From a virus, in IMG/VR virus record IMGVR_UViG_3300042731_004843, positions 32,001 through 96,000 of that record: a stretch of 64,000 nucleotides of DNA, one strand, 5' to 3'. Each line of letters begins with the position of its first letter. Position 1 is the first letter of the stretch. The position numbers and the translations under genes are program-made. The notes below the pieces were generated by a model that had not been told where the DNA came from, ran no database searches, and was given only the letters and a program-made list of their open reading frames with translations. Shown here piece after piece: positions 822 through 58,315 of this stretch.

Positions 822-1094
822 ATGCATGAGGCTAGTATGCAGGCGCTTCAAAGTGAGCTGGAGAAAATAGCCAAGACGAAGGGGAGCAGGCGCCTTGCGG
901 AAGCTATGTTTGGTAGGCTTCGTGCAGCGAGGGGAGGCGGCGTTAAGGGCAGCGAAGTGGGCGCGTTCAGGAAGTTGCGTAGGGCGAACTACGGACCATC
1001 GGAAGCGGCGGGAGCTATCGATAAGGCTAGATGGCGCGGCGATCAGTACGTGAAGGTGCCTGAAGGTTACGGCCATCGCTACATAGATTTTTAG
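822..1094 (+). CDS. small basic protein with ELEKIA leader (putative head-internal protein)
   Basis: MHEASMQALQSELEKIA leader shared with ORFs at 47783, 56866 and 57950. Confidence 0.6.
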   Translation: MHEASMQALQSELEKIAKTKGSRRLAEAMFGRLRAARGGGVKGSEVGAFRKLRRANYGPSEAAGAIDKARWRGDQYVKVPEGYGHRYIDF

Positions 1095-1103
1095 GAGAGC
1101 ACT

Positions 1104-1427
1104 GTGTCCAAGGTCTGGGCTTGGTTGAAGAAAAACTGGAAGTGGTTGATCCTCCCGCTCTGGTTGGTGTCGCTACTCTTAGTCTGGTTCCTCAGCGGCG
1201 GTAAGAGCACCCTGTTCCCTCCGTCCGGTACCACGGATGAGGCTGCCGATGAGGCCATCGCGGCCAAAGACAAGGCCATCGCGGACTTCAGGGCTCGATT
1301 GGATGATCTGCACAAGAAGGCGGAGGAGAGACTGAAGAATGCCTCCGAAGAGCAGATCAAAGAGTATGAGGAGCTCAAAGACAAGCCCGTGGAGGACGTG
1401 GCCAAGTGGATCGACAGCCTCTCGTAG
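1104..1427 (+). CDS. membrane-anchored coiled-coil protein (i-spanin-like)
   Basis: N-terminal TM helix followed by a charged helical domain; AGGAG RBS. Confidence 0.45.
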   Translation: MSKVWAWLKKNWKWLILPLWLVSLLLVWFLSGGKSTLFPPSGTTDEAADEAIAAKDKAIADFRARLDDLHKKAEERLKNASEEQIKEYEELKDKPVEDVAKWIDSLS

Positions 1428-1436
1428 GACTTCCTG

Positions 1437-4400
1437 ATGCGACTCAAGACCGCATTCGAGTGGGCGGCGACAGGACCCAACAGGGGTGAGCGCGTACACG
1501 ATGCTCCCGTACTGTGGCGGCCCGGCAAACTGAAGCGGTCGGATTTCCAACCTGCCGCAGGGATCAATCCCGATGTAGCCAGGGGTGTTGCTCGAGAGCC
1601 GCAAGAGAAGGTCTCCATATTCGATGGGGACGGTACCAAGCTGATGCCCCACCTACGCGCCATCCACAAGCTGGGCGGCATCTCTGCCAGTGAAGTGGGG
1701 ATTGAAGACCTGGACGGCTTCAAGACCACCGGCAGGCACTACGCCAGACAGGCGCAAAGGGCCTTTAGCGACAAGCCCGTAGATGCTGGTCCTGGCTACG
1801 GGGCAGACCACGAGAGCAATAGCACGGCCGGAGAAGGCAACGAGCCCGATACTTCAGGGGAAATTCCTATCGAGGATCCGCAGGACAGCACACCTCTGCG
1901 CGGACATCTACGTAATATCAGGGGGTTAAAGAAGCAGGGGGCTGGTGTGCTGTCTGGGGAGCTGCTGGCTGGGCTGCCCAGGATAGATGTCATCGCTGCC
2001 GAGCAACAGCGCCAGCTGCTATCCAGGGCCGTCCACGAGGCCCGTAGCCGCGGCGGGGAGCTCAGAGGGGCCCAGGAGCCCTCAGCTCTACCTCTGGCCG
2101 GTGAGGGGGCTCTAGAGGGCGCTCAGTATGTCAGGCTGTCAGAGGCCGATGTAGACGCCATCAATGCCCGCCTAGCCCGCCAGGCTATGGAGAAGAGTTC
2201 GAGTTGGGATCCGCGGCTCAAATCCGTCTCTGTGACTGGCTGCGTCAAACTGGCAGAGCCGGCGCCCCGTTTGCGCACAAAGCTATTGCCCCACCAAGAG
2301 CGGGTAGTTGAGAAGCTAAAGGGGCGGCCGGGACTGGTAGTGGCTCATGGGTTGGGATCGGGCAAGACGCTGAGTTCCATAGCCGCTGCTGTACAGCTGG
2401 AGCCGGACAGGACCAAGGTACTGGTTCCGGCGTCTCTCAGGGCCAACTACCAGAAGGAGCTGGACAAGCACGTAGAAGGTACCCTGCCCATAGAGGTGGG
2501 CTCTCTACAGGGTGCGGCCGCACGCGGGGAGGTGCCGCGTGCAGACCTACTGGTGGTAGATGAGGCGCACAGAGGCAGGAACCCGCAGTCCAAAACGTAC
2601 CAGATGATCCAAGGCGCCGAGGCCAAGAAGCGCCTGATGTTGACTGCGTCACCTACCTACAACCGGCCGTCTGACGTAGCCACTCTGGTAAACATGGCTG
2701 CTGGCGATAGGGTCATGCCCATGGGTAAGGCCTTTGATGAGCGGTACATCGCGCAGCCCAAGAAGGGTATCTGGGGCCTGCTCCCGTTCTCTAGAAAGCA
2801 GGAGGGCTTGAAGCGCAAGGGAGAGCTCGGCAAGGCTTTGTCGGAGTGGGTGGACTACCACAAGTCTGGGGGCAAGGGGTTTCCAGATGTGATGGAGGAG
2901 CGCCACGCGGTCAAGATGACCAAGCGCCAGACGCAGCTTCACGATGCTGCGTGGGGACAGCTCTCTTTGTTGTCCAAGATGCGTCTGCGCCGCGGGCTGC
3001 CTCCCGACAAGCAGGACCTCTCCAAGATCAACAACTTCCAGTCTCAGACCCGGCAGATCTCCAGTACTGAGTCGCCGTACACTAAGAAGGGGCGGGGCGA
3101 GGTATCTCCTAAGATCGTGAAGGCTGTAGGGCTCCTGGACACAGAAGCCAGGGCGAACCCTGATCACAAGGCGCTGGTCTACTCTAACTACTTGGGCACC
3201 TTGAGAGACTACTCTAAGGAGCTGGAGAAGCGGAAGGTGCCCCACGCCATATTCTCCGGCCAGCAAAAGATGCGGGACCGCAAGCAGATGGTGGAGGACT
3301 ACAACGCCGGCAAACTGAAAGCCCTGCTGGTATCGTCTGCTGGAGGGGAGGGGCTGGACCTGAAGGGCACCAGGCAGGTCCAGGTACTCGAGCCGCACTG
3401 GAACGTAGAGAAGCTGAAGCAGGTGGAGGGCCGGGCCATCCGCCGCGGTTCCCACACGCACCTGCCGAAAGACCAGCAGAAGGTACTGCTGCAGAGGTTC
3501 GAGTCCTATCCACGTGGAGGCATCTTCAGAAAGCGCCGCGGTGTAGAGCAGGTGCTGGGCGACATGGCTGCCAATAAGGAGAGGCTGAACCAGGAGATGC
3601 TGGGGCTGATGGAAAAGAGCGCAGAGCCACCACCCCCAGAAGGCGTCTCCGCCAAAGAGTGGGACGAGATACTGGACAACAAGGCCAGTAAGCCGCGTCC
3701 CCTGCCCGAGGTCATAACCAAGGACCGGCTTCGTGATCCTGTTGTCCAGCCACGCGACCTTATCCGGCGGCAGGAAACCCGGATGGAAAAGAGCGCGAAG
3801 CGCAAGTCCTGTTTTGATGAGTCCGTGAGAATAGCCGTAAAGAACCCACAGCTTACGCTAATGAAGGGGGATCCTTTCAAGGGCTCTGGAGACAGGGCCC
3901 ACTTCTGGTTGGAAGACAAGGACGGAAAGATCACCGACCCTACTGCGGGACAGTACCCGAAAAGTACGAGAGTCTATACGGGTGGACGACCAGTCAGCTT
4001 GAGTAGGAATCGTGATGCAGTAGAAAGAGCTCTGCAGAAAAGAGCATTCAAGCTGCAGGGACAGACCGAAGTGCAAGGCATTCCTGTAGCCATCGAGAAC
4101 CGCAAGGGGTCTGTACGGAAGGGCAAAGATCCGGACGGCAACGAGTGGCGTACCAAGATGCAGAACCCGTACGGGTACATCAAGGGCACCAAGGGAGCAG
4201 ATGGGGAAGAGGTAGATGCCTACGTGGGCCCGGACAAGGAAGCCCCCAAAGCGTTCGTCGTACACCAGCGAGACAAAGAGACCGGTGAGTATGACGAGGA
4301 CAAGGTCATGCTGGCCTTCAAGTCCAAGGCCGACGCCAAGAGAGCCTTTCTTGCACACTACGACAGCCCCAAGTTCCTCGGACCCATCAGTGCGGTACCC

Positions 4401-5093
4401 ATGGAGCGTCTGCGGGAGCTAGTAGAGAGCAAGAAGAGGCTGGTCAAGATCTCTTTCGCCGTGCCGGTTGTAGAGGACAAAGGTTACCAGAAGAAGGTAC
4501 GCCGGAGATTCGATAAACTGACCAAAGCGCTGGCACGTCACGGGGACCCAGTGGGCACAGGGCACAAGAGGATCGTCATCCCCAAGCGTGTTATGAAAGA
4601 GGATGACCTTGTTGGGCAGCTGGGGTTCGTTCCAGTCAAGGTGGCCATCCCGGAGGCCGGGCAGTCCCGCTTTGCCAGTTTTAGGCACCCGGACAATCTA
4701 TTCCACCTGCACGAGCACGGTGATGCGTGGGTCATGCACAAAGATGAGCACCCTGCGTCCACCATGCTGGTGAAGAAGTGGCGTATGGCCAGAGAGGCCG
4801 CTAAGAGCGCCACGGGCAAGAGTCAAGCTGAAGTGAAGGCGGCTCTCAAGGCTACGGGCGGGAAGCTCAAGCCGGTCGGGGATTTCATCAGAGGCCTGCC
4901 GCACGTGGTCACGGAGGGTGTTCCTGGAGCGTACTACTACGCCAAGGGGCAGATCTTAAAGACCAAGGGTATGCGGGAGAGGGTAGAAGAAGCTGTACCC
5001 AACGCGTACAAGCGCCAGGTGACGAAGTGGATAGAGCTAAAAAAGGCCGCAAGTGCCGGCTACGCCGATCTCGGTAGCCTAGTTCAGGAGTGA
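1437..5093 (+). CDS. polyvalent protein: SNF2 helicase + Cys-His-Asp domain + InPase-like domain + His-rich domain
   Basis: HGLGSGKT, DEAH, TASP, GGEGLDL, QVEGRAIR (SNF2 motifs); SC..HFW..DPT; IENRKGSVR..YGYI..DGEEVD..YDEDK. Confidence 0.8.
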   Translation: MRLKTAFEWAATGPNRGERVHDAPVLWRPGKLKRSDFQPAAGINPDVARGVAREPQEKVSIFDGDGTKLMPHLRAIHKLGGISASEVGIEDLDGFKTTGRHYARQAQRAFSDKPVDAGPGYGADHESNSTAGEGNEPDTSGEIPIEDPQDSTPLRGHLRNIRGLKKQGAGVLSGELLAGLPRIDVIAAEQQRQLLSRAVHEARSRGGELRGAQEPSALPLAGEGALEGAQYVRLSEADVDAINARLARQAMEKSSSWDPRLKSVSVTGCVKLAEPAPRLRTKLLPHQERVVEKLKGRPGLVVAHGLGSGKTLSSIAAAVQLEPDRTKVLVPASLRANYQKELDKHVEGTLPIEVGSLQGAAARGEVPRADLLVVDEAHRGRNPQSKTYQMIQGAEAKKRLMLTASPTYNRPSDVATLVNMAAGDRVMPMGKAFDERYIAQPKKGIWGLLPFSRKQEGLKRKGELGKALSEWVDYHKSGGKGFPDVMEERHAVKMTKRQTQLHDAAWGQLSLLSKMRLRRGLPPDKQDLSKINNFQSQTRQISSTESPYTKKGRGEVSPKIVKAVGLLDTEARANPDHKALVYSNYLGTLRDYSKELEKRKVPHAIFSGQQKMRDRKQMVEDYNAGKLKALLVSSAGGEGLDLKGTRQVQVLEPHWNVEKLKQVEGRAIRRGSHTHLPKDQQKVLLQRFESYPRGGIFRKRRGVEQVLGDMAANKERLNQEMLGLMEKSAEPPPPEGVSAKEWDEILDNKASKPRPLPEVITKDRLRDPVVQPRDLIRRQETRMEKSAKRKSCFDESVRIAVKNPQLTLMKGDPFKGSGDRAHFWLEDKDGKITDPTAGQYPKSTRVYTGGRPVSLSRNRDAVERALQKRAFKLQGQTEVQGIPVAIENRKGSVRKGKDPDGNEWRTKMQNPYGYIKGTKGADGEEVDAYVGPDKEAPKAFVVHQRDKETGEYDEDKVMLAFKSKADAKRAFLAHYDSPKFLGPISAVPMERLRELVESKKRLVKISFAVPVVEDKGYQKKVRRRFDKLTKALARHGDPVGTGHKRIVIPKRVMKEDDLVGQLGFVPVKVAIPEAGQSRFASFRHPDNLFHLHEHGDAWVMHKDEHPASTMLVKKWRMAREAAKSATGKSQAEVKAALKATGGKLKPVGDFIRGLPHVVTEGVPGAYYYAKGQILKTKGMRERVEEAVPNAYKRQVTKWIELKKAASAGYADLGSLVQE

Positions 5094-23644: not shown

Positions 23645-24535
23645 ATGGCTACCCACGAAGAGCAGCTGCTGGGCCTCCTGGAGAAGATAGGCCAGCCGGA
23701 AGAGACCACTGCCGAGGTCCCGTCTGTACTGGACGGGACCTCCAATGACGATCACGTCGAGACGTACGGCTCTTCCGAGGACCCCAACACGGAGGCTGAG
23801 CACGAAGAGCTGGCGGCAGCCAATACTGACCGGCAAGGGATGCCGGAAGGTGCGCTGTCCCCAGTCACGAAGCGGAACATGTGGGTGCATCACGACACCC
23901 ACCCGGTAACATATGATGTGGCCCTCCTGGGCACGTACGGCACAGACTGGTTTGAGTGGGAGCCCGGTACCCTCTGGCGTGAGATCAGAGAGGACTTCCG
24001 GGTACCCTCTATCAATGACCACGCCAAGGCCAAGATACAGGCGGCGAAGACGCTGCACATCAATGAATGGTACTGGACGAAGTGGGAAGTGTTCTGCTGG
24101 ATCACGCAGGCCTTGAACAACAATATCCCGGACTTCCATGTACTCCAGAAGCCTTCCATAGCGCAGCTGATGCAGTCTGTAGACGCCGCTACGATGGTAC
24201 GCAATGACGTGGAGTTCACCCCAGAGCTCCAGATGTTCGTGGCGGCTGCGATGGTAGAGTCCGGTGTATTCTATGCCCCGAAGCCCATAGACTTTTGCCA
24301 GGACGAGATCGAGACGCTGCTTGACGAGCTTCAGATAGATAAGAGCTTGATCGGGCAAGTACAGAGCAGGTGGCGAGAGGTGAAGCAGATCTCTCCAGAG
24401 GCGTGGGCGCGTTCTCCAGAACCCGTACTGCGGGAAGACGTGGTAGACATCCAGGTAGCCAAATTGAAAGTAGCGTGCGATTATCTGGATCTACGTCGTC
24501 GCCAACTGCAGGAGCAACTGAGGCTGCTCAAATGA
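23645..24535 (+). CDS. hypothetical virion-module protein
   Basis: 296 aa; LLEKIG leader followed by an acidic linker. Confidence 0.6.
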   Translation: MATHEEQLLGLLEKIGQPEETTAEVPSVLDGTSNDDHVETYGSSEDPNTEAEHEELAAANTDRQGMPEGALSPVTKRNMWVHHDTHPVTYDVALLGTYGTDWFEWEPGTLWREIREDFRVPSINDHAKAKIQAAKTLHINEWYWTKWEVFCWITQALNNNIPDFHVLQKPSIAQLMQSVDAATMVRNDVEFTPELQMFVAAAMVESGVFYAPKPIDFCQDEIETLLDELQIDKSLIGQVQSRWREVKQISPEAWARSPEPVLREDVVDIQVAKLKVACDYLDLRRRQLQEQLRLLK

Positions 24536-34800: not shown

Positions 34801-35000
34801 CACCAATCCTCAAGGGCGTGGACATGCTACCGCTGGACATGCAAGAGGATTGGATTGCTAGAATGAATCACCAACGACTGTCTCAGACAGTCGTGGCGGC
34901 AGCGCAGCAGGGGTGGACCAGCAAGCTGCATGGTAAGCACCCTATTCCTCCGGTTGTTTATGGTGCAGAGCTGGGCAAAGCAAAACCTGGAGAATACTAA
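28842..35000 (+). CDS. rpoBC: single-chain DNA-directed RNA polymerase, beta-beta' fusion
   Basis: Beta motifs: SHLGYLDPIHTPEG, GYNFEDG, GDKIAGRHGNKG; beta' motifs: PVLLKRDPALH, YNADFDGD, GARKG, GQALGERATQLAMKSFHTGG. Confidence 0.95.
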   Translation: MARLSPEESFEILKDRVAETVGGLFPIVGKKHTLELGQVDVNDRLHIDDIRSQKEAKLGSRTWAVPVEAKVVLRDNDTGKRVDEQKLRLMSLPKHTRRYSHIVDGQEYQIDNQWRLKSGVYARVKDNGELKSEFNLAKGRGFSLGFDPKNRQFHMSYGTSNIPLAPLLQEMGVPQAKIQEQWGSAIAQENDKDVEQAVLKFYKASTGKKADDYEQARQYMKDTLTATELRPDTTKVTLGKGYKSVTGDALMDASTKLLRISQGKAEPDPRDSLMFKDLHSTEDFFAERIQKSGRDITRRIQNTLDRKKRVSDIVGPDVFNRPIRTMYRTSLANVPDQTNPLEMMSGQMKTTITGEGGIKSSHAITEDAKLVDPSHLGYLDPIHTPEGASTGVSLRMPIGVKKKGHDVAVKMFNVKTGRLEDVNPEKAMNSTVVLPDQVRWQDGKPTPAGKTIKMSGPGNEIVEGPMKQADYIMRDPIQMFSMASNLVPFVAADHPNRSTMAGRHMEQAIPLQRRKAPLVQSVAGTKTFERVMGDYAGHTTRFAGEVVGIKKDAVVIKGDDGKNHEVQLYDHFPLNDDKGFLHSTPTVKVGDKVKKGQPIADTNFTDGGALALGTNLKVGYMPYKGYNFEDGIVISEGAAKELSSEHLYRKTLQRDRQHVLDKKKYQAYAPDAVTREQSDKLDDEGVIKPGQVVSPGDTLIAALREKKDTKEDRELARIHKSLVRPYTDASVKWEADHPGVVQEVVKKGKKLAVHVKTLEAAEIGDKIAGRHGNKGIITSILPDDEMPQTKDGKPLQILMNPTGVPGRTNLGQVLETAVGKIAEKTGKPYTVKNFQPNEDLHAKVTADLKAHGLPTDGKEEVVDPKTGRVLGRILTGPQHVVKLKHQVEKKMIARAGGPGYAYDRNLVPKGGGPHGAQALGTLGLYSMLAHGAKANLREMQTLKSDAGQSDEFWAALQAGEALPAPRPTFAYKKFTSYLNALGVNVKKDGNNLSLIPFTDKQVEEMSNGQIKDAARMVRAKDLRPETGGLFDPKTTGGVDGTKWSHIRLAEAMPNPLFERAIQSLTGLDQKKYTDLVTGRAALDKSGNLTSNLDAGVTGGAAIDSLLKKVDTKTALEQAQKELDNPNLKGNRLDQANKKVKFLRALDSAGLNARDAYMMQNVPVLPPSMRPISQLPNGDLNFDDVNGLYKGLHLTSSQLKKQQSSKLLPPEEMQETREELYDGLRALTGLGGNPRQEFRGILDVIGGKRLETSGGRATGRKVGSPKEGFFQKKLVQRKQDLSMRSTIIPEPALALDEVGLPRRAALELYKPFVVRELRNITGASPLEAQKKIGEGGQLVNRALERVVESRPVLLKRDPALHKYSVQAFKPRIVGGKAVQIHPLVTSGYNADFDGDTMAAFVPVSNEAVEEAKKMYPSRNLFSPSTGSLMYSPTLETQLGLYGITQQTGKKTGKQFKDIKEVHSALNKGQVGLNDTVRVGGLTSTTGKFLVGEALPEDMRKDFLKRKDPLDKAGQKELLTTLAKQHRNDYGEVVNKLKDLGNRWSTDTAFSIGLDDIKPETRTRDKILKAAEKRVAAAGGKPEAAIREFDKATQEMAKEFAKMPEGRSALLTMNRSGIKPYNDTLRQIKMAPMLIANAKGEVIPTPVRKSYAEGLDLADYWTSMSGARKGIIQKVQQVQEPGYLSKQVMNSVMNNTIADNDCGTDKGIALPTDEKDILDRYTAAPVRAGKKTIPAGTLVTPEVRNTLRNNRVGRVVVRSPLRCQHGPGLCKKCYGLTEDGREPEVGLNVGVLAGQALGERATQLAMKSFHTGGTVATKEGLVDEFQRVKNLLLFPKTLPGSATLSTVNGKVDKIEKDPAGGHNVFISGERHYVPQKRGVPMMGGKTLRRGAQVKKGAAISGGVVNPHDMLPLTGVEPVQGYLSNELHNIYGPHGIRRRNTEVVVKSLTNLTKVDDPGDHREFIRGDFAPQTLVANMNRRDKGKRPVRHTPILKGVDMLPLDMQEDWIARMNHQRLSQTVVAAAQQGWTSKLHGKHPIPPVVYGAELGKAKPGEY

Positions 35001-35314
35001 TGAACGAGATCCAAATGGCCAGCATGTCAGACGAGATAGGTAAGATCAAGCAAGCCGGTATCGGTAGCGTGCTCAAAGGCGTGGGCAAGTTCTTCAAGGG
35101 TGGTCTGGAGGGGGCAGGACAGCTGGCTAGTAAGTCTGGGCGGTCAGGGTTGTGGCAACAGACTAAGAGCCTCCCTGGGCAGATGCGAGAGTCCTTCCGA
35201 CAAGGTGGCCTGGCCGGAGCAGGAAGAACGCTGGCGGGGTCTACTCCCGCTCAGATAGCTGGCGTGGCTGCGGTCCCGTTCGCTGCTGGCAGATTGTCGA
35301 AGCGAGACAACTAG
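35000..35314 (+). CDS. small Gly-rich amphipathic protein with DEIGKIKQA leader
   Basis: TAATG coupling to RNAP gene; leader motif. Confidence 0.6.
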   Translation: MNEIQMASMSDEIGKIKQAGIGSVLKGVGKFFKGGLEGAGQLASKSGRSGLWQQTKSLPGQMRESFRQGGLAGAGRTLAGSTPAQIAGVAAVPFAAGRLSKRDN

Positions 35315-36592: not shown

Positions 36593-38605
36593 ATGGATCT
36601 CTTCCTCGACGATAAAAAACTGACGTTTGAAAAGCTCGGTATGGAAGCCAGGATGTCGGAGGAACCGAACGACTGGCCGGAGCAGATCTTAGACCAGCTC
36701 TTCAAGCAGGTACCTTTTGCCAGTGACTACAACCCCAAGGTAGTACTGGATGAGATCGACCCAGACCGGCGCTACGCGTTGGGGAAGGTGGAGCTCCACA
36801 ACCAGATGGCCATCAATCCTCGGGACGACTCCACCCCGATGGAACTGCAGGGCAAGCAGAAGGTCCTCATACCGATCGTCATCAAAGACGGCAGGCTTGC
36901 TCCGCTAGACCTGCTAATGCACAGCGGTTTTGTGGAGCCGCTTACTGAAGACCGCCTACGTGCGGCCCTCTTCCGTCCGTCACTCTTCGAGGCGATACGT
37001 AAGCGGCCAGGCGACATGAGCCTTATCGAGCAGCTCTACCCACCCAATCGGCAGTACGGCGGCGCCAGGGGCCCCCTAGTGGCTGACGTAGGTGCCGGGG
37101 GTATGGCTCGTACAGCATCGGCCAAGCCGGAGTTTCTTCTCGACGCCATCATGCCTACCGTCAAGAAGGCGCACGTCCAGAAGGTGGCCCAGCAGATCGG
37201 CAACGATCCAGTGCTGAGATCCGCACTCTTCTCCAACGACGCCGTCATCCCCTTCATGTCCAAGCTGGCAGAGGTGGAGGCAGTAGAGAAGGACCCGGAC
37301 GACTACCTGCGTAAGATCGCAGGCAGCATCCCGCCCAACGTCATCCAGGTGCGAAAGATCCCTGGTGGTTTCAGGATCAAGACAGCCCAGAGTGAGGCGC
37401 TGGTACCCAGCTCCGATGATGTGGACAGGCCGACGGCTGTCGGCTCTCTCGGTGGGGACCTGGTGTCTGCCGTGGAGCGTGACGGTACGACCACCATCAG
37501 TACCATGTCCGGGGCCAAAGATACGCTCGAGGACCTGGTCATCACCACAGTCACCGAGTTCGGTCTCTACAAGGTCAAGCGTTTGGGGGACAACAAGGAG
37601 ATGGTGGGTTGGGTATTCCCGAAAGTTATGGCCTTCACTGGAGAGGTCCTGCCGATCGCTGTGTTCTCCAACGGTAGCGCGTCCGCCATGCAAGAGAATA
37701 TAGCTGGCGTGCCGGTAGGCAGGCAGCCGGATGTACTGGACTCGCCTCCCCAGGGCTTGGGAGTCTTCTACTACGCCACCTCGAGCGGAGCCATGGCGTT
37801 GGTGCCTGTGATGGTCAAGGGCGAGGCAGAGACCCCGGAGGGGGTCTCGTACGTCTGTGAGACCATCATGGGGGAGCGCTGTGGAGTGATCAAGGTCCCG
37901 GGCCTGAAGAGCATACAAGTCATAGAGGAGGGCAGGTACGGTATCCCGGAGGACTGTGGGTTCATGCCCATGGACAACCCCACAGATCTAGTCTCCAGCC
38001 CTGACGAGTTTATCAAGCAGGCTGAAGCGCTCATGGTGGCCGGCGATGGGGTACGTATCATCACTGACGGCAGCTGCTACACCTTCGATGGCCCAGCCAT
38101 CGATAAGCTGGCCGGTGTGCTGCCCACCCAGTTTTTGGACAGGGATGACGCGGTATTCCTGGGCGCCGTGCTTGGTCAAGAGCCAGAGAAGCTGGCGCAC
38201 AAACTGGACAGCATCCGCAGCAAGGGCGGGCAAGAGCTGTGGATCCAGGCGGTTCCAGCCACCACCATGCGGGAGAAGTACGCGGAAGCCAGAGCTAGTG
38301 CCAAGGAGAGGTTGGACAATCTCCCCGACATGAGGACTGACCTGCTTAAGGAGGCGGCTCCGATAGAGGACCCAGCTGCTGTGGACAAGATCCTTTCTGT
38401 GGGATTCCTCAATCCAGAGAACGTGTCGATCTTCGCTAGCTACGAGCCGGAGATAGAGGCTACGATCAAGAAGCTGTCGGAGCTGCTCATGGCCTCGAGG
38501 ATGGGGCTGGGGTCTGTGGAGGAGGGGGCTCTCCAGAAAGCAATCGTTCACCTCGATAAGGTAGTGGCTGGACTGAAGACGATCGGTTCTATGCCGCAGG
38601 CATAA
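36593..38605 (+). CDS. large KxA-containing putative virion protein
   Basis: 670 aa; EKLG, RTAS, SKLA, RKIA, IKQA, DKLA, LKEAA. Confidence 0.6.
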   Translation: MDLFLDDKKLTFEKLGMEARMSEEPNDWPEQILDQLFKQVPFASDYNPKVVLDEIDPDRRYALGKVELHNQMAINPRDDSTPMELQGKQKVLIPIVIKDGRLAPLDLLMHSGFVEPLTEDRLRAALFRPSLFEAIRKRPGDMSLIEQLYPPNRQYGGARGPLVADVGAGGMARTASAKPEFLLDAIMPTVKKAHVQKVAQQIGNDPVLRSALFSNDAVIPFMSKLAEVEAVEKDPDDYLRKIAGSIPPNVIQVRKIPGGFRIKTAQSEALVPSSDDVDRPTAVGSLGGDLVSAVERDGTTTISTMSGAKDTLEDLVITTVTEFGLYKVKRLGDNKEMVGWVFPKVMAFTGEVLPIAVFSNGSASAMQENIAGVPVGRQPDVLDSPPQGLGVFYYATSSGAMALVPVMVKGEAETPEGVSYVCETIMGERCGVIKVPGLKSIQVIEEGRYGIPEDCGFMPMDNPTDLVSSPDEFIKQAEALMVAGDGVRIITDGSCYTFDGPAIDKLAGVLPTQFLDRDDAVFLGAVLGQEPEKLAHKLDSIRSKGGQELWIQAVPATTMREKYAEARASAKERLDNLPDMRTDLLKEAAPIEDPAAVDKILSVGFLNPENVSIFASYEPEIEATIKKLSELLMASRMGLGSVEEGALQKAIVHLDKVVAGLKTIGSMPQA

Positions 38606-43042: not shown

Positions 43043-43960
43043 ATGAGCGATCCCAGTGCTATCCCCCTGGGCCTGCAGCAGCAAGAGGCCGCCAGAAATA
43101 TTGATCCGGAACAGCTAGAGATGATGGGTAAGAGGGCGGCAGCTCTGTACACACAGGGTACGCCACTCAACGAGGCCGTCGTCTCGATAGTGAAGGAGGC
43201 ACGGCTGGCGCCTGAACAGGTCAAGAGGGTGTGCGAATTCGCCAATACCTCGGCTTATCTAGAGGAGTTCGAGAAGGCCGGGGAGGTCAGGAACGTGGAG
43301 TTCCAGGGTGGTCTGGCTGACCCGGGGGTGGTGCTGAAGGAGCTCAATGATGGCTCGGTGCCAGCTGTGCACCAGGTCTCCACGGAAGACTATGCTCCCC
43401 CCTCCGGATCCTACAAGACCGCTAGCGCTGATGTGTCCCTCCTGGCTGAGGCCTTCGGAGCGGTAGCAGGCCTGGAAAAGACCGCTAGCGTGAACCACTC
43501 TTCCCGAGCAAATCCAGTAGAGGCCGTCCATGATCTACGTGTGCGGCTGGAGGGTGCACGGGATCATTTGATGAGCAAGCTCTCCTCCTCAGAGATCGTC
43601 CTCAATGAGGCCAAGATCTTACTGAAGGAGGCGGCCGCCGAGGCAGTGCTGCAGGGCATGCCGATGGGAGATATCGTCCGGGCCTGGTGCAACTACGGTG
43701 ACGCCAATCAGATCAAAGAGGCGACGGTCATGGTCAGGGACCATCTCCGTGCCCGTAGGATACTAGGGGCCGAACAGTTCGCGGAGTCCATGTCCAAGGA
43801 GGCCTCTGCCGGAGTCATCGCCAACCCGGAGCACCCACTGGTGGACAACTTCCTAGTGCTCAATAAGATCGCCTTCGAGCATGCGAAGCTCGAGGAGGGC
43901 GTACGTATCCTTGGCGACCGTCTGGGAGACGTGCAGTCCTCACTTAGAGGGCTACTATGA
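43043..43960 (+). CDS. KxA-rich head-module protein
   Basis: KRAA, KEA, YKTAS, EKTAS, KEAAA, KEAS, NKIA. Confidence 0.6.
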   Translation: MSDPSAIPLGLQQQEAARNIDPEQLEMMGKRAAALYTQGTPLNEAVVSIVKEARLAPEQVKRVCEFANTSAYLEEFEKAGEVRNVEFQGGLADPGVVLKELNDGSVPAVHQVSTEDYAPPSGSYKTASADVSLLAEAFGAVAGLEKTASVNHSSRANPVEAVHDLRVRLEGARDHLMSKLSSSEIVLNEAKILLKEAAAEAVLQGMPMGDIVRAWCNYGDANQIKEATVMVRDHLRARRILGAEQFAESMSKEASAGVIANPEHPLVDNFLVLNKIAFEHAKLEEGVRILGDRLGDVQSSLRGLL

Positions 43961-44268
43961 GCATGGAGAAGGTAGCGCGCGCCTTCCAGATCTTGCAGGG
44001 TATGGAGAAGATGGGCGTGAACATCCTTGGCGGCCTGTCCGAAGCCGCCAAGTCGTTTGACGCGCTCGGTAAAGGCATGGCCGGGGCCCTAAAGGCTCGA
44101 GGGCATGAGACGGCAGCTGGTGTTGCGCGTGTGTTGCCCTACGTGGGAGCAGCCTACGCCGGGAAGAAAGCGTACGAGTCCGGCCCGGCTCAGCGGGTGC
44201 GTGCGTGGCACCAGCGGAGACAGTACGAGAAGGCCATGCGGCAGGCTCAGCAAGGAGGCTACTACTGA
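43957..44268 (+). CDS. small basic Gly/Ala protein with EKMG leader
   Basis: ATGA coupling; MEKVA..MEKMG. Confidence 0.55.
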   Translation: MSMEKVARAFQILQGMEKMGVNILGGLSEAAKSFDALGKGMAGALKARGHETAAGVARVLPYVGAAYAGKKAYESGPAQRVRAWHQRRQYEKAMRQAQQGGYY

Positions 44269-44990
44269 TGTCCAATCCAGTAGACGAATTCCTGCAGATG
44301 AAAGAGAAGCAGGCTGGGTTCCTGTCCAACTTGGGCAAAGCCATGAGAGGGCTAGGACAGGCATTTAAGGGCGGGCTGGCACAGGAGACGTTGAAGGCCG
44401 ACACCACACTGACTATGGGACAGGCACTAGCCCGAGGTGCGGGGCAAGCGCTGCTTCCAGCTGCCGTCACGGCCGCAGCTGCCGGCATAGCCACGGGAGC
44501 AAGCAGGGGGATAGGCGCAGTGATGGATCGGTTTGGTAAGGCTAAGGACTACCAGGCCATGATGCAGGTACACCCCACCTTGCGGGACAAAGATCCTGGA
44601 CAGGCACAACTCTACTTCAACTCTTTGCGCAGCACGGCACCTACACTGGCGAAAGACCCACTAGTTGCGGGGTCTTTCGTGCGGAACATGATGGAGCTGC
44701 AGCCCTCAGAAGGTCCGGCCGTACCGTTGGCTACTACCAAGCTGCTGGCAGATGCGCAGAAGTCTTTGTCGCAGGCTCGTGGTGGCCGCGGCCCGATCGC
44801 AGAGGCGTTCATGACTGGCCGCTCACCTATGTTTGAGATGCCCAGGCAGCAACCTGAGCGCCCACAACTAGTTGGTGAGAGGCGTTTCGGCCCGATTCCT
44901 GGGGAGAAGATCTACGAGGAGGGCAAGATCGTAGGCCAAAAGCCGTCCACATGGGGTCCGGTGGGAGAAACCGTGAAGGACTACGGCTAG
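44268..44990 (+). CDS. protein with KEKQA leader and hydrophobic segment
   Basis: AAGGAGG RBS; MSNPVDEFLQMKEKQA. Confidence 0.6.
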   Translation: MSNPVDEFLQMKEKQAGFLSNLGKAMRGLGQAFKGGLAQETLKADTTLTMGQALARGAGQALLPAAVTAAAAGIATGASRGIGAVMDRFGKAKDYQAMMQVHPTLRDKDPGQAQLYFNSLRSTAPTLAKDPLVAGSFVRNMMELQPSEGPAVPLATTKLLADAQKSLSQARGGRGPIAEAFMTGRSPMFEMPRQQPERPQLVGERRFGPIPGEKIYEEGKIVGQKPSTWGPVGETVKDYG

Positions 44991-47782: not shown

Positions 47783-48091
47783 GTGCAAGGTATTAACATG
47801 TCGGCGTTTTATCAGGAGATCGAGAAGATCGCGGCTCAGGCCAGGTCTTCTACTAGCGTGTGGTCGTCCAAGACAGTTGGGGCGGCCCGCTCTAAGTCTA
47901 CCGGGCAGCAGACTGCCAAGGCGCCGACCACTCCTAGCAGCCTAAACGTCAAGATCCCCTCGCCCGGTAAATACGGGCCGAGACAAAACTACTCTCAACC
48001 GAACGTCGTGACCGCACCTCCGGCCAACCCCATGCAGGGAGCGGGAGCACGCAATACCCCGCCACCTAATGTGGTTTTCGGTGTGCGGTAA
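47783..48091 (+). CDS. small protein with EIEKIA leader
   Basis: MQGINMSAFYQEIEKIA followed by Ser/Thr/Pro-rich basic region. Confidence 0.6.
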   Translation: MQGINMSAFYQEIEKIAAQARSSTSVWSSKTVGAARSKSTGQQTAKAPTTPSSLNVKIPSPGKYGPRQNYSQPNVVTAPPANPMQGAGARNTPPPNVVFGVR

Positions 48092-48104: not shown

Positions 48105-49454
48105 ATGGAGTTCACGCTTCAAGAGCTCGTTCAGCAGACGCTGGCCGAAGCCGAAAATCGGGTAAAGACGGCCGCGGCCGCCAAGCCCGAGGATGAGAAG
48201 CAGGGGTCTCCGGCTAAGACGGATCCTTCGAACACTCCGAGCACTGCTCCGGAGCGTAACGAGGAAGGTATCAGCGAGAAGACCGCCACGGCGTTCGTGG
48301 AGAAACTAGCGAGCGCGGTGCAGTACCTCAACGAGAACTACCTCGAGAAGGATGCCGTCGGCAAGCCGGAGCCACCAACAGCCCACACCCCGCCACAGGC
48401 GGACTCGGGCGTCGGGGCGGGCAAAGGCACCGGCGCCATGCCTACCAACGTGGACAAGCCCACTTCTGGTATGCAATCTGAGGAGACTGGCCAGGCCACT
48501 CCTCAGCAGCAGCCGCCAACCAACCCCGGACAAGACGTCAAGTCCCCCGGGCAGGTGAATCCAGCCACCGCCATGCAGACGGACATGAATGACCGTCCCG
48601 GCGGCTCGGAAGACTGGACCAACACGGACAAGATGAAGCAGGCAGGTCTGGCTGCATTGCGTGAGGCAGCAGCCAGTCAGACGAAAGAGGCCAAGGTCTA
48701 CGACGTCGCTGCCAAAAAGGGCCTGGGCAGGGTCGGTCAGCTGTTGTCCGGCTCTCGCGCAAAGGGCCTGAAGCTGATGGAGCAGATGGGTGGGGCAGCC
48801 AAGGGCGCAGCCAAGTCTGAGGCCCGCAAGGTAATGGCCACCAGGGCCGGTGCCGGTGGCCTAGCTGCTGTAGGTGCCGGAGCGGCCGCTGCGAAGAAGC
48901 TCAAGGGCAAGAAAGACGAGTCCACCAAGGAAGCCCAAGTAGCTCGCATCCTCGACATCATGAGCAAGATGGCGGCGGACGCGGAGAACCCGGCAAAGAT
49001 CGGTGCTAAGGCGACCAACCCGCACCAGTCCAGCCCGGAAGGGGCATCTGAGTCCGAGAAGGACGTGCCCTCCCAGCCGGGAGAAGTGTCCAAGCAGGAA
49101 TCGATGGTCGGCTCCAACCAGTCGGCTATCGACTACACCAAGGGTCAAGCGAAGGCCGTGGCCAAAGCACGGATGCGTGAGGTTCTAGACGAACCAGCTC
49201 AGAAGAAGTCGACGGACCCGGTCCTTCATAACAACCTCACTGCTACTGGCAAGGCCGGTGTGAAGATCGCATCGCCCGAAGCCGGAGCGGCAGCGAGGGC
49301 CCTCCTCGAGAAGATCGCGGAGGAAGGGGCAAGCCCAGATGCAGGCCCCGAGCAGAAGGAGAGAGCTTCTAAGCTGCAGGAGCTCTTGCAGAATCGTCAG
49401 GAGTCCCAGCAGGGGGCCCTGGAACCCAACATGCCCGTTAGCGGCGGGTACTAG
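48105..49454 (+). CDS. low-complexity KxA-rich scaffold/core protein
   Basis: AAGGAGG RBS; KTAA, KTA, KLAS, KDA, KQA, KEA x2, KMAA, KIAS, EKIA. Confidence 0.6.
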   Translation: MEFTLQELVQQTLAEAENRVKTAAAAKPEDEKQGSPAKTDPSNTPSTAPERNEEGISEKTATAFVEKLASAVQYLNENYLEKDAVGKPEPPTAHTPPQADSGVGAGKGTGAMPTNVDKPTSGMQSEETGQATPQQQPPTNPGQDVKSPGQVNPATAMQTDMNDRPGGSEDWTNTDKMKQAGLAALREAAASQTKEAKVYDVAAKKGLGRVGQLLSGSRAKGLKLMEQMGGAAKGAAKSEARKVMATRAGAGGLAAVGAGAAAAKKLKGKKDESTKEAQVARILDIMSKMAADAENPAKIGAKATNPHQSSPEGASESEKDVPSQPGEVSKQESMVGSNQSAIDYTKGQAKAVAKARMREVLDEPAQKKSTDPVLHNNLTATGKAGVKIASPEAGAAARALLEKIAEEGASPDAGPEQKERASKLQELLQNRQESQQGALEPNMPVSGGY

Positions 49455-49463
49455 GAGGACGCC

Positions 49464-49847
49464 ATGAGCAAAGAGAAGATCAGTGCAGCCCAGGCGGCTC
49501 AGGTCTACTCGGAGGTCCCGGGCGTACTTCGTGCCCTAGCTTCCGAGCGTGATGAGCTGCTCACCAAAGTAGCCGGCCTTCAAGAGAAGGTAACGGAGTA
49601 CGAGGAGCGCGACCGCATCGAGAAGATCGCTCGAGCCATGGAGGACAAGGGCATCGACCCGAGCACTTCCCTGGTGGAGAAGAGCGAGAGGATCAAAGAG
49701 GCCGCGCAGAAGGGCAGATCACTCGACGCTATCGAAGAGGCTGTCGAGATGACCGCTCCTAATGGCGAGCTGGCAAAGCTCGCTGAGGAGAGGCCGGGTA
49801 ACGGTGTGTCTCAGCTTGAGGCTTACCTGACGGACGCCCAGTCCTAG
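49464..49847 (+). CDS. coiled-coil scaffold-like protein
   Basis: AGGAGG RBS; EKISA, EKIA, KEAA, KLA. Confidence 0.6.
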   Translation: MSKEKISAAQAAQVYSEVPGVLRALASERDELLTKVAGLQEKVTEYEERDRIEKIARAMEDKGIDPSTSLVEKSERIKEAAQKGRSLDAIEEAVEMTAPNGELAKLAEERPGNGVSQLEAYLTDAQS

Positions 49848-49875
49848 CAGCGACACGAACTGAGGGAGAAATCCG

Positions 49876-50325
49876 ATGGCAAACATTCACTTCGAGCTGG
49901 TCACCGAACTTCAGGGACTGATTCGCCGGGACTTTACCCTGGCGGACAAGGCCCTGGCGAACCCGAACAACACGAACCCGCTGATCGATGGCGAGTTCCT
50001 GAGCCTCGATGCCGCGTACCATCTGGTACGTGCTGCCGATGGCGTGCTGGCATTCGCGCACTTCATGGAGCGGGGACGCTTCGACGTGCAGGCCTTGGGC
50101 AAGACCATGGTTCTGTTCGGCGGGACCTACGAGGCGGACACTCGCGTGTTCACCGCAACCGGCCTCACCCTGGGCGGCAAGCTCCAGGTCAGTGCGTCCG
50201 TAACTGTCGACGGCAAAACCAAGTCTGGAGTCGCCAACTACGCCGCAGGCGAGGTTGTTGGCTACGTGACGCGGCTGCCGGCAAACAACGGCGGGAAGCT
50301 CCGCTTCCTGCAGACCATGGTCTAG
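49876..50325 (+). CDS. capsid decoration/cement protein
   Basis: 149-aa beta-rich protein directly before MCP. Confidence 0.5.
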   Translation: MANIHFELVTELQGLIRRDFTLADKALANPNNTNPLIDGEFLSLDAAYHLVRAADGVLAFAHFMERGRFDVQALGKTMVLFGGTYEADTRVFTATGLTLGGKLQVSASVTVDGKTKSGVANYAAGEVVGYVTRLPANNGGKLRFLQTMV

Positions 50326-50376: not shown

Positions 50377-51498
50377 ATGAGCGTTCCCGCAAGAGTACTG
50401 AATGACCTCTTTTCCCAGAAGCTGGGCACCAGCGAGGGGAAGGAAAAGATCGCGGAATACGCAGGCACCTACATTCGTGACCGGCTGCGTGAAGTCAGCT
50501 TTGCGCGCAAGATTCTGCCCCCGCAGATGGTCACCCGTGCGGACTGCCAGCGTTCCGTCAACCACGACACCCTGGTGAAGATCATCGACGTCGAGCCCAA
50601 GAGCCGCGCGATGGCCATCACCTTCCGCGGTCAGCCGACCGCACGGTTCATCCGCGCTCCCAGGGCGGAGGTTCCGTTCTTCACCGTCTCGAGCGAGAAG
50701 TTCGAGAAGACCGAGCAGGAGCTCCTGGCCTACGAGATGCCGATCACCAAGGTGATCGAGGACAACTCGGTCAAGGACATCCAGGAGATCGAGGACCGTG
50801 AGTTCACGATCCACATCGAGGCGGCTGTCCAGGCCCTCCAGGCGGAGGCCAATGGCGGCGTCACGACCACCCTGAATGCCACGTCGGTTCAGGCCGGTAC
50901 CGTGGTGGAGTTCTCGGTGCGCAAGGGTGAGCTGGCCCGCAACGCCACCACCGATGACGGCACCGTCTATCCGGTACAGAGGCCGGACTTCGTCAACCTC
51001 TTCAAGCTGTTGGACGGCAACAGGCTGCGCGCGGAGATGGTTCTCATCACCGAGGTGGACTGGGACGACATCCTACAGTGGACCGTTGAGGATTTCGGTG
51101 ACCGCGTCCAGTCCGAGACGACGGTGGACGGCTACAAGTACAACCTGCTTTTGGGCCGGGCGTACTGCCGCACCATCAAGACGGACATCCTTCGTCCAGG
51201 CAACATCTACTGCTTCACCAAGCCGGACTTCTTTGGCCGGTTCTTCATCCTGAACAACACCAAGTTCTACATCGACAAGATCGCGAACCTGATCACGTGG
51301 CAGTCCTGGGAGGACATCGCCATGTCGGTCATCAACATCGCGTCGGTGCGGAAGGTGGAGCTGTACTCGGGTGACGCGACATCCAACGACGCCGATGGTA
51401 TCCTCTCTTCGGTCATCCCCGTGGACGAGGAAGATCTAGGCGCTGAGAACAACCGAGTCGATTCCGGCCTGGTGTTCCCGGGTGTCGAGGTCTTCTAG
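50377..51498 (+). CDS. major capsid protein (HK97 fold)
   Basis: 373 aa, strongly biased codons, RE.SFARKIL..DIQEIED..F, strong RBS, followed by terminator. Confidence 0.8.
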   Translation: MSVPARVLNDLFSQKLGTSEGKEKIAEYAGTYIRDRLREVSFARKILPPQMVTRADCQRSVNHDTLVKIIDVEPKSRAMAITFRGQPTARFIRAPRAEVPFFTVSSEKFEKTEQELLAYEMPITKVIEDNSVKDIQEIEDREFTIHIEAAVQALQAEANGGVTTTLNATSVQAGTVVEFSVRKGELARNATTDDGTVYPVQRPDFVNLFKLLDGNRLRAEMVLITEVDWDDILQWTVEDFGDRVQSETTVDGYKYNLLLGRAYCRTIKTDILRPGNIYCFTKPDFFGRFFILNNTKFYIDKIANLITWQSWEDIAMSVINIASVRKVELYSGDATSNDADGILSSVIPVDEEDLGAENNRVDSGLVFPGVEVF

Positions 51499-55741: not shown

Positions 55742-56860
55742 ATGGACACCTTCTTGACCGAACTGTACGAGGAAGCACAAGAGAAGAGGGCCTCTGCTGA
55801 GCTCCAAGACTTCATGAAGTCTATGGATCGTGATGACTTGGAGGCTTTCTTGGGGCTGGACAAGCAGGCCGTGGCCGGACCTGCCGAGGGCGAGATGCCC
55901 GCCAACTGGCAGGGCAAAGAGCTGGACGCCTCCCAAAAGGCCAAGGACGACTACCTGGCTCAGGAGCACCAGGGCACGCCCAAGTCGGTAGAGAAGACCG
56001 ACAAGTGGGCCCAGACCTGCAACAGCCAGGAAGGCACATCCAAGGTCAAGTCGGACAAAGAGGATGAGCCGAAGACCAAGGCCGCGGAAGCCAAGTTCCA
56101 GGCAGCCGATGCCATCGGCAGGATGTTCGCCAAGCAGGCGTCTTTGGGCTCTTACTTGGGGGCCAAACGTTCCGACAAGAAGCGTGAAAAAGAGAAGAAG
56201 TCCCAGGGTCTGGGCTCTGACATGGCAGCCATGGACTCCGGGCTGGAGAACACGGCCGAGGCCAAGATCGCCAGGATCTTTGGCGCGGGCGAGCCCTCAG
56301 AGACTATGTACAGCGACAGGGTTCCTTACGACGTGCGTGAGCGCGCGTTCAAGGGCTACCTGCAGCAGAAAAGCCAAGAGGCACCGACCGGCCTAGCCAG
56401 AGCCTTAGGTGGCGGGGCCGCGGTAGGCGGGGGTCTGGGAGCCCTCTTGGGTGCCGGTACTGGTGGGGGCAAGGGCGCGCTGATCGGTAGTGGAATCGGG
56501 GCTGGGCTAGGCGCTCTAGGTGGCGCCGGCATGCGCGCCGCCGACAAGTCAGAGATCGCCCGCACCAAACAGGAACTGGCTAGCGGGGACCTTCCACTGG
56601 CTATGGCCCATAGGATCGGGGACTACGAAAGCAGTAGAAATTTTGCCGAGGAGATGAGGCGCCAGCAGGCGGACTCCAAGACAGATCGCCGGCACAGAGA
56701 GCACATGGACGTCCTTAGAGGGCGGGGCAGCACCAAGAAAGCGGAAGCCAAAGCCAAGATCGCCCAGATGGCCATGAAAGTCTCCGAGGGCGCTCCTGAA
56801 CACGTCAAGGCTGCTGCTGTCTTCATGGCCGGTCGTAAGATGGCTGAGCTCTCCAAGTAG
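55742..56860 (+). CDS. KxA-rich protein with glycine-zipper cassette
   Basis: EKRAS, KQA, KQAS, AKIA x2; GGGLGALLGAG..GAGLGALGG. Confidence 0.65.
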   Translation: MDTFLTELYEEAQEKRASAELQDFMKSMDRDDLEAFLGLDKQAVAGPAEGEMPANWQGKELDASQKAKDDYLAQEHQGTPKSVEKTDKWAQTCNSQEGTSKVKSDKEDEPKTKAAEAKFQAADAIGRMFAKQASLGSYLGAKRSDKKREKEKKSQGLGSDMAAMDSGLENTAEAKIARIFGAGEPSETMYSDRVPYDVRERAFKGYLQQKSQEAPTGLARALGGGAAVGGGLGALLGAGTGGGKGALIGSGIGAGLGALGGAGMRAADKSEIARTKQELASGDLPLAMAHRIGDYESSRNFAEEMRRQQADSKTDRRHREHMDVLRGRGSTKKAEAKAKIAQMAMKVSEGAPEHVKAAAVFMAGRKMAELSK

Positions 56861-56865
56861 CAGCC

Positions 56866-57045
56866 ATGAACCCGCAGACCCTACAAGGGATGGCCGATGA
56901 GCTCGAGAAGATCGCCACCGGGGGTCAGTTCAAGTTCATGGGCATGGCCGACGATGAGAAGAGGCGCACCTTGGCCATGAGCAAAAACCTCAACCAGAGC
57001 CTCGGCAAGGTACTCACCCACGAGTACAAGGACGACAAGAGGTAG
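56866..57045 (+). CDS. 59-aa protein with DELEKIA leader (not in ORF track)
   Basis: MNPQTLQGMADELEKIATGG...; exactly fills the intergenic gap. Confidence 0.65.
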   Translation: MNPQTLQGMADELEKIATGGQFKFMGMADDEKRRTLAMSKNLNQSLGKVLTHEYKDDKR

Positions 57046-57957
57046 ATGGCCAACCTCGTAGTCACTAAGCCCCTGGTCCGGGGGTTCTCCCTGGACTTCC
57101 TGGAAGTCACCTGGGAGATAGAGGACACCTCTCTTGATCCCCACGACTTCCAGTTCCAGCTCTTCCGGAGTGAGTCTCCGATGGGGCCATGGGATCAGAT
57201 CGCCGGGCCCTTTGAGGATAGATACCGCTTCGTGGACAATCAGGTGAATCTGCTCCACAGGTGGCGGCAGATTTACTACAAAGTCCGGAGCACGGAGAAG
57301 GCCAATGCGGACAACTACGTGGATAGTGAGGCCTTCACCTTCCACGCAGAACCAGACCTGATCGCGGAGGAGATCCAAAGGCTCGAGCGCATAGTGTGGG
57401 AGGAATACGCCGGCAGGCGGTGCTTCATCTTCCCGGCACGCACCTTTGGTCAGCGGTGCGGCAACTGCTACGACGGCCCGGAGAAGGGCAAGGGGTTCAC
57501 TTCCCAGCGCCGTAGGTCTAACTGCCTGACATGCTACGACACCGGGTATGCGCGCGGATACCTAGATCCCATTGAGATCTTCGTCCAGATAGACCCCTCT
57601 TCCAAATCTGTCCAGACCGTACCTGTGGCAGAGCGGCAGCAAGTGGACACGACAGCACGTTTGCCTAACTTCCCACTGCTAAAACCCAGGGATATAATCG
57701 TCGAGACTGAAAACAGGAGGTGGCGGGTAGTCAAGGTGACTTCTACGGAACGGCTCAGGAGCGTCGTCCACCAGGAACTCCAATTGCACGAGCTGGTGGC
57801 GGGCGACATCGAGTTCCAGCTTCCCATCAGACTAGAAGATTTGAGAGACTTTGAGCCGAGCCCTGGTAGGAACTTTACGAACCCCCATAACCTGGAGGGC
57901 TTCGAAGCAGAGGCGATCAAACATGCTTTCGCAGTCTACGGGTACGGGAATGATTGA
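57046..57957 (+). CDS. neck/head-closure protein with FN3-like N-terminus and Zn-binding CxxC pairs
   Basis: VTW..LFRS..GPW..YYKV; CGNC..CLTCYDTG; RDIIVE..RWRV. Confidence 0.55.
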   Translation: MANLVVTKPLVRGFSLDFLEVTWEIEDTSLDPHDFQFQLFRSESPMGPWDQIAGPFEDRYRFVDNQVNLLHRWRQIYYKVRSTEKANADNYVDSEAFTFHAEPDLIAEEIQRLERIVWEEYAGRRCFIFPARTFGQRCGNCYDGPEKGKGFTSQRRRSNCLTCYDTGYARGYLDPIEIFVQIDPSSKSVQTVPVAERQQVDTTARLPNFPLLKPRDIIVETENRRWRVVKVTSTERLRSVVHQELQLHELVAGDIEFQLPIRLEDLRDFEPSPGRNFTNPHNLEGFEAEAIKHAFAVYGYGND

Positions 57958-58315
57958 TTACTCCGCCTTCCACGGTGAGATCGAGAAGATCGCCGCGGAC
58001 AACGACAAAGGCAGAATCACGAAGGAAAAGCTCAAGAGATTTGCAATCGCAGCTCCGGTAGCAGCCGGTGGTGCAGCCCTGGGACACGGCGTTGGCCAGC
58101 TAGTAAGGCGTAATGTCCTATCTCCGCGCACCTTGCAGGCCCTGGACGCTGCCGCAAAGCGGAAGCCCTTGGTGGCCAAAGCAGTAGGCGCTCTCCCGGC
58201 TGTGGCCGGTGGGTTGGCTGCTGGTGCCGGGATGATGCAGGCGATGAAGGCGCGGCAGATGCGGGACTTCATCGAGGGAAAGAAGGAAGATGGCGGACGT
58301 ACCGACACCCAGTAG
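57950..58315 (+). CDS. small protein with EIEKIA leader and two Gly/Ala hydrophobic segments
   Basis: MIDYSAFHGEIEKIA. Confidence 0.65.
   Translation: MIDYSAFHGEIEKIAADNDKGRITKEKLKRFAIAAPVAAGGAALGHGVGQLVRRNVLSPRTLQALDAAAKRKPLVAKAVGALPAVAGGLAAGAGMMQAMKARQMRDFIEGKKEDGGRTDTQ

Follow-up and report, generated by a model that had tools for sequence, protein, structure and literature searches.

A shared N-terminal tag on unrelated late proteins of an uncultured phage clade is a candidate signal for prohead loading and proteolytic removal

The window analyzed here comprises 64,000 nucleotides of viral DNA, bases 32001-96000 of a 108,145-base IMG/VR virus record (IMGVR_UViG_3300042731_004843) that is estimated to be 58% complete. 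In this virus and its relatives a consensus peptide, A-F-F-D-E-L-E-K-I-A, hereafter called the tag, heads about 10-15 unrelated, mostly small basic proteins per genome. We propose that the tag loads proteins into the prohead and is then removed, at a hydrophobic-E-K-x-A site, by a prohead protease predicted at 44994-47039, and we assign this reading a probability of about 0.5. Comparison between genomes supports it well, because the site motif is enriched in late proteins, brackets the protease domain and adjoins gene or homology boundaries; loading into the capsid, the cut and the position of the cut are predictions.

Relatives of the window were collected from IMG/VR by capsid-protein similarity. 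With the capsid protein (50377-51498) as query, 328 relatives were found at 75-97% identity, five of which are complete genomes of 178-196 kb. Across relatives the tag follows the consensus [SAG]-F-F-D-E-L-E-K-I-[AG], in which E and K are invariant among 57 distinct instances. The invariant Glu is residue 12 in most carriers, and [SAG]-F-F-D-E-L lies 3-7 residues past the start Met. The divergent members G002 and G003 retain D-E-L-x-K-[IL]-[AG].

Translating the window in six frames yields four matches to the strict pattern E[ILVM]EKIA, all on the plus strand and all at starts of open reading frames (ORFs), with the Glu codons at 855, 47816, 56899 and 57977, each 12-46 residues past a stop codon. 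At 35033 stands a variant, D-E-I-G-K-I-K-Q-A. Outside the window, the record holds four further N-terminal tags and one C-terminal tag, so that nine canonical tags stand in the whole 108-kb record against 0.05 expected. Among the called proteins of the record, the six-residue core occurs seven times at the N-terminus and never internally (0.5 in residue shuffles), and a position-specific scoring matrix (PSSM) returns seven N-terminal and one C-terminal match against 0.05 expected; one further tagged ORF is absent from the gene calls. When 4-mers are counted without bias over the first 28 amino acids (aa), EKIA, FFDE and ELEK come out on top in three genomes. A loose bipartite regular expression gained little over the strict tag. 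In 80 related loci the gene strand bears 64 copies of the core and the opposite strand a single one. Since each synonymous codon is in use at each position of the 57 instances, selection acts on the peptide and not on the DNA or RNA.

An earlier note on this DNA, made from the letters and their ORFs, had proposed a portable leader on otherwise unrelated small proteins. All ten of the N-termini it listed translate as quoted, with a GTG start at 47783, and shuffle counts and codon variation bear out that unrelated late proteins carry a genuine, portable signal at the peptide level. The N-terminal motif exceeds its composition background, with the blind 4-mers agreeing with the PSSM. Its placing at the N-terminus is right for most copies, a few being internal and one C-terminal. 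The statement that similarity stops right after the motif is correct between families but not within one, as the body of the 47783 family is conserved as well.

A split arrangement was observed at L102:11764-12788 (same genome, outside the window), where the F-F-D-E-L-Q-Q-I-Q at the end of one gene is followed by an ORF in another frame that begins with a tag. In G001 the counterpart is undivided, one ORF whose internal tag follows Q-K-T-A. The arrangement may result from gene fission, a frameshift or an assembly error.

The tagged proteins are strongly basic and otherwise disordered, with a median isoelectric point of about 10 compared to 6.3 for all other proteins. Their bodies after the tag measure 48-282 aa and are rich in Gly, Ala, Ser and Pro, some with Gly-zipper-like stretches. 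From an alignment of 16 sequences of the 47783 family, AlphaFold2 predicts a sole helix at aa 6-18, which corresponds to the tag, the remainder being coil; the confidence of this helix is modest (predicted local distance difference test, pLDDT, 70-75). Judging from the sequence, F, [IL] and I fall on the same side of this helix. For the small protein at 35000 no orthologue was found in the genome set compared. A second basic motif, G-R-R-[PS]-[IL]-[RS]-V, lies about 15 residues past the tag in a subset of tagged proteins (L102:2690-2923, G001 45552, G005 60764, G002 75855 and G003 159989).

Beside the canonical tag, E-K-x-[AG] closes the conserved leaders of the 55742, 23645 and 43957 families, and the 44268 family represents a second leader class. 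The latter leader, M-N-P-V-x-E-F-L ... K-x-A, is shared by a sigma-70-like protein of the same genome, encoded outside the window (L102:3453-4223), which scores above the Pfam cut-off for Sigma70_r3. This protein has about 20 extra N-terminal residues in comparison to the sigma factor Gp10 of Salmonella phage Arash, and these residues are its leader. Of the weaker examples put forward earlier, 44268, 55742 and 23645 thus have conserved leaders and 24532 carries a degenerate tag, while 36593 is weak. The copy at 24532 is read as a decayed tag, since its orthologues carry the canonical one (Table 1).

The gene at 44994-47039 is supported as encoding a prohead protease with catalytic His and Ser residues predicted from their invariance. 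In the ESM Atlas, the nearest named clusters of its product are prohead proteases, with scores near 0.8 that serve as a lead only. The AlphaFold2 model has a pLDDT of 66 overall and of 80-95 at residues 100-270. Its residues 68-272 match T4 gp21 (5jbl_C) at Z 8.8, with a root-mean-square deviation of 2.8 Å over 131 residues, and herpesvirus assemblins match at Z 5.4-7.1; Foldseek rows for the model are weak one by one. H122, H123 and S179, the Ser of a V-S-M-G motif, are invariant in 29 orthologues. Some orthologues (L028:435-3560; L020:2827-6846) carry one or two inteins with Hint and LAGLIDADG domains, at 122/123, directly past S179-M-G and near residue 237. Inteins favour active-site motifs. 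We assign the gene on the combination of the ESM Atlas lead, the gp21 fold, the invariant His/His/Ser residues and the inteins inserted at those residues, which upholds the earlier naming of this gene as the protease and of the V-S-M-G Ser as a key residue. The Peptidase_S77 model (PF03420) has no match at E<=1 in five genomes and the 44994 product has no Pfam or PHROG protease match; as modeled, it is related to gp21 and assemblin by fold only. A reversed assignment, with the 212-aa product of 47125 as the protease and 44994 as the portal, was overturned by the fold result for 44994, and a phmmer search with the 47125 protein against the PDB gave nothing meaningful.

Candidate self-cleavage sites in the protease lie at aa 28-31, 52-54, 278-283, 319-322 and 389-392. 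K52-x-A54, just before the protease fold, is invariant or nearly so in the family, and A-K-L-A-S stands at the end of the fold. Within the variable linker a conserved island contains the motif (site identity 0.91, flank 0.18), and the 55742 leader ends in the same E-K-R-A-S as occurs in the protease.

The second half of the tag also recurs inside other late proteins, among them the major capsid protein (MCP) and scaffold-like proteins. On the late strand, the pattern [ILMFV]EK.A past aa 25 was counted 12, 10, 17, 17, 14 and 19 times in G000, G001, G005, G002, G003 and Arash, respectively, compared to 1.6-3.9 expected from composition, 2.1-4.3 in shuffles of 15-residue blocks and 0-6 in letter permutations. 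Hydrophobic-E-K-x-A is thus enriched 3- to 12-fold within late-strand proteins of the five clade genomes and Arash. The opposite strand of these six genomes shows no excess. Replacing Lys by Arg gave no enrichment, and neither did Gly or Ser in place of Ala at internal sites. An enrichment of K-x-A, as anticipated in the earlier note, is therefore seen for hydrophobic-[ED]-K-x-A in late proteins and not on the other strand, but does not extend to Ser at internal sites. The E-K-I-A that the note had seen near the N-terminus of the MCP persists in 95% of 40 relatives. A match of the MCP N-arm to the full tag was also considered and dropped, as only E-K-I-A is in common. The product of 48105 is scaffold-like by gene position.

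Within the second half of the tag, the second Glu varies to Q, V, D or G, and K and [AG] are more constant. This leads us to lean toward a cut after the small residue.

Table 1 Features of the window discussed in the text.
Feature	Position	Strand	Remarks
Small basic tagged protein	822..1094	+	Tag 10-mer A-L-Q-S-E-L-E-K-I-A at 843-872; start 822 or 837
1218-aa polyprotein-like ORF (N-domain, SNF2 helicase, spacer, InPase domain)	1437..5093	+	V-K-L-A 2247-2255; M-E-K-S-A 3609-3623 and 3783-3797
296-aa protein	23645..24535	+	Conserved L-L-E-K-I-G at aa 11-16
324-aa Gly/Ala-rich protein	24532..25506	+	Degenerate tag; orthologues in two complete relatives bear canonical tag
Small Gly-rich basic protein just past RNA polymerase gene	35000..35314	+	Variant leader ending K-Q-A, 35000-35056
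670-aa protein	36593..38605	+	F-E-K-L-G site weak; kept in 1/2 orthologues
103-aa protein	43957..44268	+	Leader ending M-E-K-M-G; orthologue leaders end K-x-[AG]-G
240-aa protein, second leader class	44268..44990	+	M-N-P-V-[DE]-E-F-L, variable-length spacer, K-x-A-[GA]
Predicted prohead protease, 681 aa	44994..47039	+	Fold aa 68-285, disordered linker aa 286-419, helical C-terminal domain
Tagged 102-aa protein within head module	47783..48091	+	GTG start; tag 47804-47833
449-aa scaffold-like protein	48105..49454	+	Four E-K-x-A sites; aa 66 site conserved above flanks
Major capsid protein (PHROG major head protein)	50377..51498	+	E-K-I-A aa 23-26 (50443-50454)
372-aa protein	55742..56860	+	Conserved leader ending E-K-R-A-S; site identity 0.93, flank 0.44
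Tagged 59-aa protein	56866..57045	+	Tag 56887-56916
Tagged 121-aa protein, Gly/Ala-rich hydrophobic stretches	57950..58315	+	Tag 57965-57994; same start Met in orthologues

Enzymes are found among the carriers in some genomes. In G002 and G003 the protein with the InPase domain begins with the tag, and the stand-alone SNF2 helicase of G005 begins with the tag-like L-W-E-E-L-E-K-C-A. In the window, helicase and InPase domain are parts of the single ORF at 1437-5093. Its V-K-L-A precedes the conserved core of the helicase by about 10 residues, at the point where the leader of G005 ends, and its two M-E-K-S-A sites lie beside positions at which genes or homology end in relatives. In G005 and Arash the helicase has a gene of its own (470 and 472 aa, respectively), whose homology to the 1437-5093 ORF stops at residue 725-727, inside the first M-E-K-S-A (725-729).

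Salmonella phage Arash (OQ632216) is the closest cultured relative. It has homologues of the MCP (28% identity), the protease (35-44%), the portal, the RNA polymerase (RNAP), the sigma factor and the helicase; it differs from the phage of the window in how helicase and RNAP are split. The 19 [ILMFV]EK.A sites of Arash, against 1.6 expected, are clustered in six head genes beside the MCP, with three sites in the protease homologue, and reading the two MCP N-termini side by side places a K-E-A of Arash near the corresponding position. Mass spectrometry (MS) of Arash virions lists RNAP subunits, sigma factor, helicase and the protease homologue (PMC10585845), a list that fits a packaged transcription kit. 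Two Arash minus-strand proteins (58195-58971; 172528-172992) begin with M-E-K-x-A-S, the site motif at residue 1.

We envisage the leader as bipartite. Its first part, [SAG]-F-F-D-E-L, would line one side of a short amphipathic helix through which the protein attaches to some component of the prohead core during assembly; the best candidates for this partner are the protease-scaffold protein and the scaffold-like proteins encoded in the module at 43000-50300. The second part, hydrophobic-E-K-x-[AG], would be the recognition site of the phage's own gp21-like protease (44994-47039), which would remove the leader once the shell has closed. Cleavage at the same site would free the protease domain from its own flanks, trim the MCP and the scaffold-like proteins and split the helicase/pyrophosphatase polyprotein. 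The cargo would consist of small, very basic, disordered or Gly-zipper proteins, acting as internal or ejection proteins, to which some genomes may add enzymes and a sigma factor accompanying a packaged RNA polymerase. In its most specific form, which we offer tentatively, the proposal is a two-part address, an F-F-D-E-L docking helix followed by a hydrophobic-E-K-x-A site that is recognized by a protease of the gp21 fold whose cut has shifted from after Glu to after a small residue, as in the herpes assemblins; such a code would predict the packaged and injected proteome.

Several points weigh against loading followed by cleavage. A few copies of the tag are internal and one is C-terminal, and some E-K-x-A sites are not conserved. 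A cut after Glu may occur instead of one after Ala, since gp21, the closest structural relative of the protease, cuts after Glu and the tag holds F-D-E with an invariant first Glu; the motif that is both conserved and enriched is hydrophobic-E-K-x-[AG]. The F-F-D-E-L tag is absent from Arash, the sole cultured relative, and the particle list of that phage (116 proteins) may include contaminants. The published MS table for Arash comes without peptide positions, and its coverage figures cannot show processing (PMC10585845). Finally, many tagged genes are tandem and alike in composition, and part of the spread of the tag may be paralogy.

The leader could instead be a processing-only propeptide, serving as a substrate or masking peptide for the head protease, with entry into the capsid set by the protein bodies. 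This would agree with the internal recurrence of E-K-x-A without F-F-D-E-L and with Arash having the site motif and no tag, and an acidic tag on a basic body fits masking. However, F-F-D-E-L is as conserved as the site half and is fixed near the N-terminus, more than internal sites seem to need, and the bodies would be poor carriers of a common sorting signal, as they are disordered and unrelated. We regard such a propeptide as unlikely.

Also improbable, in our estimate, is a docking motif that is never cleaved, comparable to encapsulin cargo-loading or virion plug peptides, which would hold proteins to the inside of the shell, to the portal, the tail or a chaperone and would persist in the mature protein. 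The C-terminal copy and the few internal ones would suit it, MCP, scaffold-like proteins and protease all bear E-K-x-A as expected of a common docking site, and the evidence for cutting is indirect. Yet the sites border the protease fold, fall in disordered linkers and adjoin points where relatives have separate genes, a distribution typical of cleavage sites, and several leaders keep K-x-A though the length of the spacer varies.

Tandem genes (56866/57950, and three consecutive ones in G002 and G003), the common Gly/Ala-rich basic composition and the subfamily with the second motif G-R-R-P-I-R-V could also be explained by one fast-evolving paralogous family without any sorting role, in which only an N-terminal helix for oligomerization, membrane or DNA contact is still recognizable. 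Against this, the tag is also found at the start of InPase-domain proteins, and a tag-like leader at that of an SNF2 helicase, enzymes that elsewhere are untagged or fused; the tagged families have differing conserved bodies; and the second half of the tag matches sites in protease, MCP and scaffold-like proteins. Paralogy as the whole explanation is thus very unlikely. Chance, composition or a DNA- or RNA-level element that happens to be translated has nothing in its favour except the shortness of the motif and is practically eliminated by 7-11 tags observed where shuffles give 0.05-1, by the single minus-strand match against 64 on the plus strand in the 80 loci and by the occurrence of all synonymous codons at every position, on which last ground the nucleic acid element was rejected.

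For a tag that loads cargo and is then cut off, the closest known system is the capsid-targeting sequence (CTS) of T4 (IPI-III, Alt) with its protease gp21. The T4 CTS is itself two-part, with the targeting residues first and the protease site at the end (PMC9026906). In both cases a short N-terminal peptide of similar length (about 17 aa here) is found on unrelated, mostly small basic proteins, and the head module encodes a protease of the gp21 fold. The two leaders have no sequence relation, and the enriched site is hydrophobic-E-K-x-[AG], whereas that of T4 is (L/I)-x-E. Unlike in T4, the protease continues into a long linker and a helical domain and escapes the Pfam gp21 model, and there are about 10-15 carriers per genome here compared to a handful in T4; the function of the present tag is predicted from sequence.

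The phiKZ gp175 and SPN3US gp245 systems resemble the present one in having many head or ejection proteins with propeptides, redundant sites, a self-cleaving protease and a packaged RNA polymerase. Their propeptides, however, are mostly 111-254 aa long, have only a three-residue site S/A/G-x-E in common and are cut after Glu, in contrast to the defined 10-residue tag described here. Herpesvirus assemblin is a protease-scaffold fusion that cuts (V/L/I)-x-A|S at its release and maturation sites. The 44994 protease is of the same fold class, is likewise joined to a scaffold-like C-terminal part and is flanked at its protease domain by candidate sites with Ala followed by Ala or Ser. The Lys two residues before the Ala and the Glu before it are specific to this phage group, and a cut after Ala is predicted here. 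Encapsulin cargo-loading peptides are comparable as short portable peptides on unrelated cargo destined for the interior of an HK97-fold shell, binding to the MCP being putative in our case; they are usually C-terminal, uncleaved and of another consensus. The principle of a CTS with its protease is already known, and what is new is the tag, the site motif and the protease subfamily, none of which is described in the literature searched. A full-text search with six spellings of the tag found no paper.

The tag-bearing phages are a large, widespread and wholly uncultured clade with genomes of about 180-195 kb. A blastn search with the head module against 50,697 phage records gave zero matches, and Pfam and PHROGs left nearly all head-module and tagged proteins without a name. 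A search of 2.9 million viral contigs with the exact back-translated tag pattern yielded no more than 28 stretches, most of them on contigs 40-200 kb long.

Further genes of the window have counterparts in Arash. A single 2052-aa ORF at 28842-35000 contains beta and then beta' RNA polymerase domains and shows 33% identity over aa 5-1478 to the Arash ORF 130093-134670, which gene order equates with Gp206, the protein with the most spectra in Arash particles. At 25509-27530 a 673-aa protein is encoded with 32% identity to the Arash ORF 128120-129859. The latter is equated by gene order with the portal Gp204, and the protein of the window is likely the portal. Right after the RNAP gene and the small tagged gene, weak matches to Phage_base_V and Gp5_C repeats at 35348-36580 suggest a tail spike gene.

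Since the site half of the tag is shared with the cultured phage Arash, the claim of cleavage is directly testable now. If the proposal is true, the capsid contents of this uncultured clade would become readable from sequence, including the basic proteins, enzymes and transcription factors that travel with the DNA, and a transcription kit of sigma factor, SNF2 helicase, pyrophosphatase and single-chain RNA polymerase would be predicted for hundreds of uncultured jumbo phages. The tag would be a second experimentally tractable, portable capsid-targeting tag beside the T4 CTS, and its protease would represent a new specificity class among proteases with the gp21/assemblin fold.

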